DNA of 64,000 nt from a virus (taxonomy: Duplodnaviria; Caudoviricetes), in IMG/VR virus record IMGVR_UViG_3300021978_000001, positions 96,001 to 160,000 of that record; one strand, written 5' to 3'. A program made the translations under genes and the position numbers. The notes beneath the pieces were generated by a model. The model ran no database searches, was not told the origin of the DNA, and saw only the letters and a program-made list of their open reading frames with translations. Position 1 is the stretch's first letter, and each line of letters begins with the position of its first letter. Of this stretch, positions 27,651-55,926 are shown in pieces.

Positions 27651-27654
27651 AAAA

Positions 27655-27737
27655 GAAGTGAGGGTGGTCAAGGTGGTGCATATGGGGGTCCTTGTTTGCT
27701 ATAAGATAACCCATGTGCGGCATACCACCCCCACTTC
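27655..27737 (-). ncRNA. hairpin cassette copy 1, near-empty
   Basis: GGTATGCCGCACATGGGTTATC-about 15 nt-ACCCCCATATGCACCACCTTG within an outer stem. Confidence 0.6.
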
Positions 27738-27762
27738 TGACATCTTCCTGGGAAGAAGATAG

Positions 27763-28218: not shown

Positions 28219-28240
28219 CAGTTGAACCTCGCTATGTAAA

Positions 28241-28379
28241 TCTGAGCCGAACAAGGTGTGGATCTGGGGGTTTAGCGTGCTACCATTACACTACCCTGGG
28301 GGTTAACCCAGGGCCGGGACTCGAACCCGGACCGCCTGATTTGCATTCAGATAACCCATCTCCGGCATCTCGGCTCAGA
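28241..28379 (-). tRNA. circularly permuted tRNA-Cys(GCA) (28275-28350) inside hairpin cassette
   Basis: Order: anticodon arm, T arm, CCCTGGG, TTAACC, CCCAGGG, D arm; U73; joining restores C27-G43. Confidence 0.8.
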
Positions 28380-28407
28380 ACTGTGCTCTCTCTTGTTACG
28401 AGAGAAG

Positions 28408-28736
28408 ATCAAAGGTGTGTCCACCAAGGCTGCACCCGAGTAAGGGTATATAGGTGGCATCGTTGTGTGGCCGCCGTCTACGCGCCAACTCGTGGCCTAT
28501 CGCCGTGGAGAAGGTTCGCGCACCGGGCTGGCGGGCGCCCTCATGATCGAGATTGCTCTCGACCTTAGCCTTGAGCCTTCGTGGGGAAGGGACTCTCAAG
28601 GGAGGGTGAGCTTGGCCTGACAGGTGTAACCTCGATAGGAGACTACCCCGTTTCGCTAGACCCCTCACGGGGATTCACTACCTTCGGACCGTTATTGGGA
28701 TAACCCACCTACGGCAGCTCAGGCACAGCTCTTGAT
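28408..28736 (-). ncRNA. hairpin cassette enclosing an about 249-nt structured RNA (28451-28699)
   Basis: GCTGCCGTAGGTGGGTTATC 5' arm, TATACCC 3' arm; GNRA hairpins inside. Confidence 0.6.
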
Positions 28737-28825: not shown

Positions 28826-28891
28826 GTCACGGTCAAAGTGATGTATATGGAATATTCTATCTCCGATAATCCATACACGGCATACCGTAAC
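28826..28891 (-). ncRNA. hairpin cassette, near-empty copy
   Basis: GTTACGGT-ATGCCG-TGTATGGATTATC-short loop-TATTCCATATACA-TCACTTTG-ACCGTGAC. Confidence 0.55.
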
Positions 28892-28892
28892 A

Positions 28893-28973: not shown

Positions 28974-29172
28974 GCATACTCGTCTCTCCGAGCTGTCACC
29001 CGGTCTGTCCCAGGTTCGTCATGCGTCACACTCTCGGGCCGCATCGCCGCACGAGGGGATCTTCAGATCGCGTGACCCCTCGTGAATCACATGCGACCTC
29101 CGGCGTCTGGTCTCGCCGGGCCACGGGATTGTGCACGCGCATCTGCGCGGATGGAATCCTCGGGCGTCAGGT

Positions 29173-29315
29173 ATTGCGTGGTCAAACGGAGCGTAACAGG
29201 AGTGTTGACTCGTGCTCTGCCGGTTGAGCTAGAAGTGCCACTCGTCATGACACAACCCGGGACTCGAACCCGGAACCACAAGTTTGGATAACCCTATCAC
29301 TGCATACCACGCAAT
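29173..29315 (-). tRNA. degenerate circularly permuted tRNA (Gly/His-like) in hairpin cassette
   Basis: T arm precedes D arm; acceptor has 2 mismatches; anticodon loop would be non-standard. Confidence 0.55.
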
Positions 29316-29437
29316 CATGGTCCTTCTCCCTAAGATCTCCCTGAGAAGAAGGTTTGGGTTGGATGAACCTCTCACTGACACCTTGATCGACCGAAATTGA
29401 CGACAACGACAGACAAGAGGATGAGAGGTTCATCCAG

Positions 29438-29924: not shown

Positions 29925-30007
29925 CGAAACCTCGATCAGTGTCGTGTCGAGTGCAGGGTCCGAAGTCAGCGAACACCGCTTCTCCCTGCACGAGCAGGGA
30001 AGATAGA

Positions 30008-30152
30008 GTACACCGGATAAGGGATGAGAGTGGATGTTTTTGGCGCTTTACCACTAAGCTACACAGCCGTAAACGATGGCTGTGGGTTGGAATCGAACCA
30101 ACCGATCTCCCCGTTAAGAGCGGATAACCCACGGCTCTTCAGCCCGATGTAC
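30008..30152 (-). tRNA. circularly permuted tRNA-Lys(CTT) (30042-30123) inside hairpin cassette
   Basis: CCG-CTCTTAA-CGGGG, T arm, CACAGCC-A-TCGTTTAC-GGCTGTG, D arm, GCC; joining gives a perfect 5-bp anticodon stem. Confidence 0.85.
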
Positions 30153-30154
30153 AG

Positions 30155-30227
30155 TACCACAGGTGGGGGTCGAACCCACAACATCCTGGTTTTGAACCAA
30201 GCGCCTCTTCCATTGGGCCACTGTGGC
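30155..30227 (-). tRNA. tRNA-Leu(CAA), short variable loop
   Basis: CTTGG-TTCAAAA-CCAGG; 5-nt variable region. Confidence 0.75.
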
Positions 30228-31406: not shown

Positions 31407-31555
31407 TGTACATGAATCGAACAAGGTAGTGAGCAAGGGGTTTTTACGAGTGCTACCGTTACACCACATGTCCGGGTGGACATGCTGGGACTCGAACCCA
31501 GACCACGCGCTCCGCTGGCGATAACCCTTATCTCGGTCATCTCGATTCATGTACA
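31407..31555 (-). tRNA. circularly permuted tRNA-Arg(GCG) (31447-31520) inside hairpin cassette
   Basis: CGC-CAGCGGA-GCGCG, T arm, CATGTCC-ACCC-GGACATG, D arm, TCG; joining gives a perfect CGCGC/GCGCG stem. Confidence 0.8.
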
Positions 31556-31666: not shown

Positions 31667-31757
31667 GCGCCATCCCCGCATGCGCGGGGAACACTAAATC
31701 TGAACAAACACAAGCAGAGCGCCCGAGATGAACCATCCCAGCATATGCAGGGAAATC
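31667..31757 (-). CRISPR. repeat-spacer-repeat unit (31667-31694 and degenerate 31730-31757, 35-nt spacer) upstream of tRNA-Val
   Basis: GTGTTCCCCGCGCATGCGGGGATGGCGC plus a degenerate copy. Confidence 0.75.
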
Positions 31758-44750: not shown

Positions 44751-44823
44751 CCGGGGCGACAGGACTCGAACCTGCGACCTCTTGATTCGGAATCAAGTGC
44801 TCATCCAACTGAGCTACGCCCCG
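44751..44823 (-). tRNA. tRNA-Arg(CCG)
   Basis: Canonical cloverleaf. Confidence 0.93.
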
Positions 44824-44826
44824 AAG

Positions 44827-44900
44827 CGAGGGTGGCAGGACTCGAACCCGCACCGCCGTGGTTAGAAGCCACGCATCCTATCCGGTTGGACCACACCCTC
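44827..44900 (-). tRNA. tRNA-Arg(TCT)
   Basis: Canonical cloverleaf. Confidence 0.93.
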
Positions 44901-52102: not shown

Positions 52103-52775
52103 CGCTTCCGTCGCTTTCCGTAATCTCGAAGAGAGGAGCAAAGACGCGATGAAACTTAACTGGTTGCTCTTGTAGGGACTGCTTCGTGACTTGGCGTAGA
52201 CGATCGGCCTCCCTCATTTCAGCGTTGGCGCGAATGCGTTGCTGCACGGTGAGCACTTCTGAGGGAGCAGGGATGCAAACCGCGTCGGGATACCTCTCGG
52301 AGCGCCAACGTGCGAGCGCCTCGCGCAACCCAGTGACGTAATCCTCCATATCCTCGGGAGAAACGTTCGTCACGCAAGAGGTGCTTGGGATACGCGAAGT
52401 CGTCACGTTCTTACACGTCACGTTCTCAGCAAGCCAACACTTGCGCGCTTTCTGTTGCCTTTCCACGTAGGAAAGCTCCTTGCTTGCTTTCTCGCTGGTC
52501 TCATCGTTGACTTCCGCACACGTATCCGAGAGCTTCGCAGAGAAAGCCTTTGTGGCCTCGGTCGCACCCGAAAACGAAAAACCCCAGCATTCCATGGCAC
52601 GTGTTGCGATCTCTAGCGATAAACGCCTGACCGCTTCAGGGTTTGAGACCTTGCCCTCACCTTCGCAACCCGTGCAAGGATTCTCGACGGTCACCAAGCC
52701 CACATACTTACCCTGACCATCGCAACGGTCACAACGTTTATACAGATCCTCAAGCTCCCAACTACCCTTACCCAT
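52095..52775 (-). CDS. hypothetical protein with N-terminal DnaJ-like Zn finger
   Basis: CDRCDGQGKYVGLVTVENPCTGCEGEG. Confidence 0.65.
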   Translation of the reverse strand: MGKGSWELEDLYKRCDRCDGQGKYVGLVTVENPCTGCEGEGKVSNPEAVRRLSLEIATRAMECWGFSFSGATEATKAFSAKLSDTCAEVNDETSEKASKELSYVERQQKARKCWLAENVTCKNVTTSRIPSTSCVTNVSPEDMEDYVTGLREALARWRSERYPDAVCIPAPSEVLTVQQRIRANAEMREADRLRQVTKQSLQEQPVKFHRVFAPLFEITESDGSDE

Positions 52776-52805
52776 AACTATCCTCCGCGTTTCATGTGAT
52801 CAAAA

Positions 52806-52896
52806 AGAGCCGGGTGGGACTCGAACCCACGACATACCGCTTAAAAGGCGGATAGGACCATCCCCGCATGTGCGAGGAACAATAGCCCCACCCGGC
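52806..52896 (-). ncRNA. tRNA-Lys(TTT)-CRISPR repeat chimera
   Basis: Repeat TTGTTCCTCGCACATGCGGGGATGGTCC (52855-52882) in place of the D arm, followed by CCGC-CTTTTAA-GCGG, T arm and acceptor 3' strand. Confidence 0.75.
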
Positions 52897-55762: not shown

Positions 55763-55835
55763 CTCTGGGAGCAGGACTCGAACCTGCAACCTCTGTGTTA
55801 ACGGCACAGCACTCTACCAGTTGAGTTATCCCAGA
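55763..55835 (-). tRNA. tRNA-Asn(GTT)
   Basis: CTGTG-CCGTTAA-CACAG. Confidence 0.9.
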
Positions 55836-55843
55836 ATAAAACA

Positions 55844-55926
55844 TGCGCCGGGCAGGACTCGAACCTGCACGCTCCTAAGAGACCTGATTTACAGTCAGGG
55901 GGGCCAGCCGATTGCCCAACCGACGC
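55844..55926 (-). tRNA. tRNA-Tyr(GTA)
   Basis: Long variable arm, loop CTGTAAA. Confidence 0.92.

Follow-up and report, generated by a model that had tools for sequence, protein, structure and literature searches.

A probable YrlA-type Y RNA gene with a tRNA-like middle lies in the tRNA array of a Ro60-encoding giant phage

Introduction

What might be encoded by a locus in which the 3′ half of a tRNA precedes its 5′ half? This question is raised by a minus-strand element, here designated E1 (31555-31407), in the tRNA array of a phage whose complete genome has 437,490 bp and terminal repeats. Coordinates refer to the window, the 64,000-nucleotide stretch of this genome that was analysed, unless they are given as genome positions. 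The original prediction viewed E1 as a permuted tRNA-Arg(GCG) gene whose product could persist as a covalently closed tRNA mimic, for instance as a decoy for anticodon nucleases or tRNA-sensing defences. Circularly permuted tRNA genes occur in red and green algae and in Thermofilum. Their transcripts are matured through a bulge-helix-bulge junction, a splicing endonuclease and a ligase into ordinary decoding tRNAs.

YrlA is a tRNA-mimicking Y RNA that is bound by bacterial and phage Ro60 (PMC4201824; bioRxiv 10.1101/312249). Its architecture consists of a stem, YUAY, a stem-loop, a T-arm, a closed acceptor, a D-arm and the closing strand of the stem (PMC4201824; bioRxiv 10.1101/312249), with the YUAY motif upstream of the V stem-loop (PMC4201824). 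Most YrlAs are found within 4 kb of Ro60 and on the same strand (PMC4201824). Among jumbo phages, TROVE proteins are reported from a small subset only (PMC7824862).

Results

Anatomy of E1

Direct reading of the sequence agreed letter for letter with the minus-strand sequence originally given for E1, including the A33 in the hairpin loop and the 4-nt ACCC loop that closes the acceptor stem (Table 1). The tRNA-like domain is ordered as (V), T-arm, closed acceptor-like stem and D-arm, and all seven pairs of the acceptor stem are of the Watson-Crick type. The nucleotides responsible for tertiary contacts in tRNAs are present as well: a UUCGAGU T-loop, GG in the D-loop, U8, and A15 with U48. The last U of the variable loop is able to make the Levitt pair A15:U48 with the D-loop; covariation of this pair has been noted in YrlA (PMC4201824). 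When the two halves were rejoined in silico, the predicted CGCGC/GCGCG stem of 5 bp was obtained and ARAGORN returned a clean Arg(gcg) cloverleaf. The native E1 sequence received no tRNA call from either ARAGORN or the Rfam tRNA model.

Three features had not been part of the first account: a 14-bp outer helix, the adjacency to a tRNA gene, and five clustered elements with the same scaffold. The outer helix encloses the whole of E1; it is present in both the MFE and the centroid folds and is recognizable as an exact inverted repeat. E1 begins 1-2 nt past the 3′ end of tRNA-Val(UAC) (31556/7-31630). The fold energy of E1 had a z score of −4.0 relative to 200 shuffled sequences, none of which folded as well (0/200). 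The YUAY of E1 is UUAU (31524-31521) inside the conserved GGGUUAUC, and its counterpart in the sister element E2 aligns to the YrlA consensus CUAc within GgaaCUAc. On the other side of the tRNA-like domain, UAAAAACCCC comes directly after the post-D-arm bridge CG.

A close variant of E1 was found in two marine metagenomes from different studies, on a single contig in each. It carries ten substitutions and one 2-nt insertion, all within 31426-31465 (positions 9, 16 and 26 and the internal loop of the trailer), while every stem, the CAGCGGA loop and the ACCC loop are unchanged. The one metatranscriptome of the source sample, kept as contigs, gave no coverage of the locus.

Table 1 Features of E1 and related elements. 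Positions are those of the window unless an accession is given.
Feature	Position	Strand	Details
Outer helix, 5′ strand, GUACAUGAAUCGAG	31541..31554	-	Pairs with 31408-31421; family equivalent (helix 1) covaries
Ro60-site-like leader	31528..31540	-	Bulge AUGAC 31540-31536, CGAG 31535-31532, then AUAA
Conserved GGGUUAUC	31520..31527	-	Contains YUAY; GGG(U) pairs with (A)CCC 31441-31437
Anticodon-arm look-alike	31506..31520	-	CGC, loop CAGCGGA 31517-31511, GCG, bridge CG 31507-31506
Variable loop and T-arm	31485..31505	-	UGGU 31505-31502; CUGGG-UUCGAGU-CCCAG 31501-31485; from sequence, Rfam YrlA and our model
Closed acceptor stem ('AS' arm)	31467..31484	-	CAUGUCC 31484-31478, ACCC 31477-31474, GGACAUG 31473-31467
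U8-G9, D-arm, U26 and bridge	31447..31466	-	GUGU-AACGGUA-GCAC 31464-31450; CG 31448-31447 pairs with 31507-31506
Trailer	31422..31446	-	UAAAAA, CCCC, UUGCUCACUAC, CUUG; equals the family AAAACAUCC...ACUUG block
Outer helix, 3′ strand, UUCGAUUCAUGUAC	31408..31421	-	MFE and centroid folds; inverted repeat
E4, sister YrlA copy	30000..30156	-	Loop CUCUUAA; 89.7 bits, E 9e-24 (our model); directly after tRNA-Leu
E2, sister YrlA copy	28234..28385	-	Loop AUGCAAA, closing loop UUAACC; 81.2 bits (our model)
E3, sister copy with degenerate acceptor stem	29165..29319	-	42.6 bits, E 2e-10, full length; 10-bp outer helix AUUGCGUGGU/ACCACGCAAU
E5, scaffold-only copy, YrlB-like, no tRNA module	27651..27747	-	E1-type leader, GGGUUAUC, trailer; 15-bp outer helix
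RNA copies of phage Phosso	PV764938.1 19136-19301, 24170-24333, 24407-24572		Our model

Relationship to YrlA and co-occurrence with Ro60

A loose-pattern DNA scan of IMG/VR returned more than 119 stretches, many of them in contigs of 300-490 kb with 2-4 copies each. A search for related loci by the Ro60 protein gave two loci, and the DNA pattern scan was the productive route. Our covariance model (R1) was built from 32 aligned elements of other phage contigs and contains no sequence from the window. In this alignment, 93.4% of the cells pair, compared to 68.9% in shuffled alignments and 37-47% when the partners were slid, and the covariation score was 0.68 as opposed to at most 0.16 in the controls. 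Compensatory changes were seen at 5/7 pairs of the outer helix (helix 1) and at all seven pairs of the acceptor stem (helix 6); the D-arm (helix 7) covaries, and the inner helix (helix 2) is 89% paired across the family.

E1 matched this model over its full length with 81.8 bits (E 1.6e-21), a score that lies between those of its full-length sister copies E4 and E2 (Table 1). The same model recognized YrlAs next to Ro60 genes. The YrlA of mycobacteriophage Cali, directly upstream of Ro60, was matched over its full length with 73.9 bits; in Gordonia phage Cashline, the RNA (68.8 bits) precedes the Ro-like gene by 24 nt, and Streptomyces phage Phredrick has one of 78.9 bits on the upstream side of its Ro60 gene. 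Ordinary tRNAs matched the core of the model only, with 37.5 bits or less. Rfam at its gathering thresholds reported only tRNAs in the window. The Rfam YrlA model RF02553 aligned with E1 (24.8 bits) and E2 (32.3 bits) over their full length below its gathering threshold of 69 bits, a range in which its matches were non-specific in control genomes; the Ro60-adjacent Cali YrlA itself reached only 36.1 bits, in the same range as E1 and E2. By eye, the Cali YrlA shares the scaffold of the family, with GCCGAGAG, GGUUACC, a hairpin with a 7-nt loop, and ...CACCAUGU. A blastn search of the region against cultured phages gave tRNA cross-matches only.

The phage encodes a Ro60 ortholog of 583 amino acids (genome positions 295160-296911) with a TROVE domain (2.8e-41) and a vWA_Ro60 domain (3.4e-60). 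This open reading frame is about 42% identical to the Ro-like proteins of mycobacteriophages, and its top-scoring match is in the 469-kb Sinorhizobium phage Phosso. It lies about 168 kb from E1 and on the opposite strand. E1 is therefore outside the placement that is usual, if not strictly defining, for YrlA, namely on the same strand within about 4 kb of Ro60. Among ten other phage contigs with these RNA elements, TROVE was found in all eight that are at least 90% complete, and the two element-carrying contigs without it are fragments (60% and 76% complete).

Phosso itself carries three full-length copies of the RNA, scoring 112, 95 and 66 bits with our model, in unannotated gaps. They are about 200-270 kb from the Phosso gene for Ro60, whose product is XYS97555.1, depending on the direction taken round the circular map. 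Because Phosso has the same arrangement as the phage studied here, the remote multi-copy layout is typical of this group of giant phages. Giant phages with Ro60 thus have several YrlA-type RNAs that are unannotated and remote from the Ro60 gene, and that escape both searches of the Ro60 neighbourhood and the Rfam threshold. In the best Phosso copy (112 bits), the D-arm is of the Glu type, the loop triplet is CUC and the closing loop contains ACCA.

Given the model scores, the Ro60 gene of this phage and the presence of Ro60 in its relatives, E1 is assigned to the YrlA family of Y RNAs rather than to permuted tRNA genes. The observed features, that is, the sequence anatomy, the family-wide covariation, the homology to Ro60-adjacent YrlAs and the co-occurrence with Ro60, are best explained as a whole by a YrlA-type Y RNA gene with a tRNA-like middle and a stem of the Ro60-site type, a reading to which we assign a probability of about 0.88. 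The YrlA class has been known since 2014, and E1 is an unannotated member of it in a Ro60-encoding giant phage. The part of the original prediction that stood is the tRNA mimic with a loop-capped acceptor end.

Additional copies and their shared scaffold

The scaffold of E1, GGGUUAUC followed by ...CACNACCUUG, recurs in the tRNA array in six clustered minus-strand copies, E1 and five others. These copies follow one grammar: their outer helices are unrelated in sequence, the leader ends in GGGUUAUC, and a cargo separates it from a trailer of the form UAAA(A)CCCC...CACNACCUUG. There are nine exact occurrences of GGGUUAUC in the window as compared to 1.0 expected, and six of the nine are clustered on the strand of E1. 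Four copies (E1-E4) contain the back-to-front tRNA module and all four are unannotated; further copies consist of the scaffold only. Since the grammar recurs, even in a copy without a tRNA module, the flanks of E1 are a conserved scaffold and not spacer. When the halves of E4 were rejoined, ARAGORN found a cloverleaf in it as well.

The tRNA-Cys(gca) that ARAGORN called at 28306-28380 on the minus strand was rejected as a miscall that joins the Y-RNA leader of E2 to the hairpin and T-arm of E2. This segment scored 20.7 bits with the Rfam tRNA model versus 81.2 bits with the Y-RNA model. Its annotation as tRNA-Cys is corrected here because it is a Y RNA.

The scaffold-only copy E5 matched RF01656 with 28.9 bits, and its match to our model was full-length but weak (11.7 bits). 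We take RF01656 to be a model of nematode stem-bulge RNA, a Y-RNA homolog. A scaffold-like element at 28826-28892 (minus strand) also matched RF01656, with 34.2 bits. Another copy of the scaffold, at 28408-28736 (minus strand), encloses a much larger cargo that is not a tRNA and contains GGUCCGAAGGUAGUGA (especially around 28690-28675), presumably almost the same sequence as the 5′ strand by which vertebrate Y RNAs bind Ro60.

E1 (31555-31547) and E4 (30152-30144), both on the minus strand, open with CUGUACAU, which directly follows the discriminator base of tRNA-Val in the case of E1 and of tRNA-Leu in that of E4. Such a shared start behind tRNAs suggests that the tRNAs and the Y RNAs may be co-transcribed and separated at a common processing junction. 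Between tRNA and Y-RNA genes of the minus strand there are also solitary hairpins GUUCCCCGCG...CGGGGAUGG, at about 31700-31668, 31190-31165, 31085-31055 and 27540-27515; on one of them, a weak match to the Rfam CRISPR-DR28 model was seen (31668-31691).

The terminal stem as a candidate Ro60-binding site

In the family, the consensus CGGGC-C-GA on the 5′ side pairs with ACUUGCCCG on the 3′ side, which leaves a bulged C followed by a G·U and an A-U pair. The short form of the two strands is GGGC-C-GA / UUGCCC. The G·U next to the bulged C is present in 31/32 elements and the A-U in 23/32. The vertebrate Ro60 site, GGUCCGA with a bulged helix, has the same geometry as this stem (Chen et al., PMC4201824), and the bacterial Ro60-binding motif is GNCGAAN0-1G near the 5′ end (PMC4201824). 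The exact GNCGAAN0-1G string was absent from E1, where AUCGAGAUG and GACCGAG come closest to it and CUUG is the 3′ partner. E1 thus has a looser version of the family stem, in which GACCGAG faces CUUG with the 5-nt AUGAC bulge. The leader CGAG can pair with CUUG (31425-31422), and the register of the pairing in E1 is ambiguous.

The acceptor stem and its closing loop

The closing loops of the acceptor stem range from 4 to 39 nt in the family. N-CCA starts 16 of 43 of these loops, while about 1.6% would be expected, and two loops are GAAA. The N-CCA loops track the encoding of CCA by neighbouring tRNA genes (75% versus 43%). In the window, CCA is encoded by none of the 25 tRNAs and by none of three Y-RNA closing loops. 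A CCA-adding enzyme is missing from the phage, and any CCA repair would depend on that of the host.

The YrlA of M. smegmatis has a 7-bp acceptor stem, is cleaved by RNase P and gains CCA in vivo, while that of S. Typhimurium is not cleaved (PMC4201824); Chen et al. considered the 7-bp acceptor stem to be the determinant of RNase P cleavage (PMC4201824). Since E1 has a stem of the same length as M. smegmatis YrlA, it could be cleaved and repaired with CCA in the same way. The pattern of N-CCA loops and the M. smegmatis precedent make RNase P cleavage of E1 plausible but unproven.

In its specific form, this possibility holds that RNase P cuts 5′ of the acceptor G1 and that trimming and repair turn the ACCC end into CCA, which would give a two-piece and possibly chargeable Y RNA. 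While the 7-bp stem shared with the cleaved and CCA-gaining M. smegmatis YrlA and the N-CCA loops of relatives are consistent with it, the ACCC loop of E1 has only 4 nt, which leaves a single nucleotide as the "leader" 5′ of the cleavage site. The original prediction had raised the concern that this loop may be too short for RNase P. The GAAA loops of two relatives fit the GNRA tetraloop pattern, which suggests that some members stay closed. Considering also the uncut S. Typhimurium YrlA and a phage devoid of a CCA-adding enzyme, we regard a two-piece E1 as possible and hold it only tentatively.

The anticodon-arm look-alike and tRNA identity

The anticodon-arm look-alike of E1 occupies the place of the V stem-loop of YrlA. 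Across the family, the hairpin after GGGUUAU and the 1-3 bases past the D-arm form a perfect composite stem of 5 bp in 28 of 59 fully parsed elements. When the post-D segments were exchanged among elements as a control, there were 10.3 ± 2.1 perfect composite stems, with a maximum of 16. The two bridge pairs (helix 4) change compensatorily. The position of the nick varies among copies (3+2, 4+1, 2+3) with the total of 5 bp preserved. The family hairpin has a 7-nt loop with U33 in 32/43, R37 in 38/43 and A38 in 33/43 elements, and the A33 of E1 is a minority state. The composite scheme also fits, by eye, the YrlAs located beside Ro60 in Cali and Cashline. Judging from sequence, the hairpin and the two bridging pairs of phage YrlA-type RNAs may constitute a nicked but complete anticodon arm throughout the family, which would be a modest addition to what is known. 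The structure paper on S. Typhimurium describes YrlA as lacking an anticodon loop (bioRxiv 10.1101/312249). A complete anticodon-arm look-alike and a CCA encoded in the closing loop would refine the published picture of YrlA as having neither an anticodon loop nor a free CCA end.

A broader proposal is that phage YrlAs are mimics of whole tRNAs, with a nicked complete anticodon arm and a closing loop that follows the local convention for tRNA 3′ ends, opened by the RNase P and CCA machinery into molecules of two pieces that might be chargeable and are held by Ro60. We consider this proposal unlikely at present. If it were true, giant phages would be retaining several paralogs in their tRNA arrays as a means of engaging, or diverting, enzymes that recognise the anticodon arm and the acceptor end, including host defences that target tRNAs, and the V stem-loop would be the distal part of an anticodon arm rather than a variable arm.

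The relationship of the modules to specific tRNAs was examined as well. Recent descent of E1, E2 and E4 from the phage's own tRNAs was rejected, as their identities of 0.60-0.68 are those of any pair of tRNAs here, and the three elements are no closer to the cognate tRNAs of the phage than to others. Isoacceptor-specific mimicry in the overall sequence was also rejected: with the loop masked, the top-1 class matched in 1 of 42 modules versus 2.1 ± 1.4 under the null, and the top-3 classes included a match in 6 versus 5.5. One Glu-type sub-lineage looks class-like by eye only. The tRNA-Arg(GCG) identity originally assigned to E1 is thus nominal. E1 is no closer to the phage tRNA-Arg, the loop-masked bodies do not follow the implied class, and because the triplet shows no detectable identity signal, the name is only a label.

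These results bear on the suggestion that E1, alone or together with Ro60, acts as a decoy for, or a sensor of, host anticodon nucleases or other defences that target tRNAs. The hallmarks of an anticodon loop that the family keeps on a complete 5-bp composite stem are consistent with such a role, as are the location of the copies inside phage tRNA arrays and the grouping of TROVE proteins with RNA-repair systems that answer RNase effectors in an overview of jumbo phages (PMC7824862). Nevertheless, E1 has A33 and not U33, the loop-masked bodies show no resemblance to tRNAs of the class that the triplet implies, and E1 is no nearer to the tRNA-Arg of the phage than to its other tRNAs. We therefore find a decoy function rather improbable.

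Discussion

E1 resembles YrlA (RF02553; PMC4201824; bioRxiv 10.1101/312249): both have a terminal stem, YUAY, a V stem-loop, a T-arm, a loop-closed acceptor-like stem and a D-arm. Both also have the nucleotides for tRNA tertiary pairs and Ro60 in the same genome, and the Ro60-site motif of the YrlA terminal stem has a near match in E1. E1 differs from YrlA in its placement, inside a tRNA array and about 168 kb away from Ro60, which is encoded on the opposite strand, and in being one of four tRNA-module copies that are accompanied by scaffold-only copies. Its acceptor stem has the full 7 bp, a length found also in M. smegmatis YrlA (PMC4201824), and is closed by only 4 nt. While YrlA is described as being without an anticodon loop in the S. 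Typhimurium work, the V hairpin of E1 and the two bridges make up an anticodon-arm look-alike of 5 bp with a 7-nt loop. In addition, a bulged Ro-site helix of the vertebrate kind can be recognized, with both of its strands, in the E1 family, a further difference from YrlA.

Among phage Y-like RNAs, Yrl1 and Yrl2 of Thermus phage phiLo were shown to bind Ro60 and the host PNPase (PMC12135203). They share with E1 a CGA(A) motif in a stem-bulge-stem and a phage Ro60 partner, which for E1 is presumed. Unlike E1, they lie just upstream of Ro60, and the accessible text describes them as stem-bulge-stem Y RNAs only, with the term "tRNA-like" not occurring in it (PMC12135203).

For E1, we infer transcription, binding by Ro60, any cleavage of the acceptor loop and a biological role from its sequence and its relatives. 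We propose that E1 would be transcribed with the tRNA operon from the minus strand, directly behind tRNA-Val. Its 5′ and 3′ ends would pair to form a long stem with a bulged-helix site of the kind bound by Ro60; the partner of E1 is presumably the ortholog that the phage itself encodes about 168 kb away. The central part would fold into an L-shaped look-alike of a tRNA, composed of the T-arm, the D-arm, the 7-bp loop-closed acceptor stem and the hairpin, with the hairpin stacking on the two bridging pairs and so imitating an anticodon arm in its entirety. Judging by Y RNAs that have been characterised, E1 may tether or gate Ro60 and offer a tRNA-shaped module to tRNA-binding proteins. As Phosso is culturable, Ro60 binding, processing by RNase P and CCA addition, and a role against host defences are all open to bench testing.

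How does this account compare with a genuine circularly permuted tRNA-Arg(GCG) gene, in which the flanks are removed, the halves are ligated via a circle and the loop is opened to give a decoding tRNA? Such genes and E1 are alike in that the 3′ half is encoded ahead of the 5′ half, as in algae and archaea, with a short linker between the acceptor strands, and the rejoined halves of E1 form a perfect cloverleaf according to ARAGORN. The flanks of E1, however, are a conserved and covarying Y-RNA stem of the Ro60 type that is also found around copies without a tRNA module, the element is homologous to YrlAs located beside Ro60, and the phage encodes Ro60. The junction of the halves is situated in a three-way junction inside a stem, and no bulge-helix-bulge (3-nt bulge, 4-bp helix, 3-nt bulge) was visible there by eye. 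Neither RtcB nor an Rnl2-type ligase is encoded in the complete phage genome. The covalently closed circle that had been envisaged is unsupported. E1 is also unlikely to act as an ordinary decoding tRNA, as had been anticipated, since it has A33 and the phage already possesses a tRNA-Arg(ACG). Under the ICG rule, a modified ACG anticodon would already read the codons that are read by GCG. We consider a permuted gene exceedingly improbable. A false lead is thereby removed, as nothing found in this phage points to tRNA gene permutation or to circularised RNA.

Scarcely credible, too, is a functionless relic of a tandem tRNA duplication or of a tRNA-tRNA junction, which would accord with two tRNA-tRNA junctions in the window that match the model core at 25-37 bits and with the dimeric-tRNA origin proposed for YrlA (bioRxiv 10.1101/312249), but not with full-length conservation and compensatory changes over dozens of phage genomes, a marine variant with no change in any stem and elements strictly associated with Ro60.

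The two junctions are an Arg-Arg pair with 2 nt between the tRNAs (44795-44871, minus strand, 37.5 bits) and a Tyr-Asn pair with 8 nt between them (55808-55875, minus strand, 24.7 bits). Closely spaced tRNA junctions that match the core of the Y-RNA model illustrate how YrlA could have arisen from dimeric tRNAs, as has been proposed. At 52747-52864 on the minus strand, the same core was matched in part (25.8 bits), beside a borderline Rfam tRNA match of 30.5 bits (52806-52864). The latter segment received no call from ARAGORN and may be a degenerate tRNA or a tRNA-like element.
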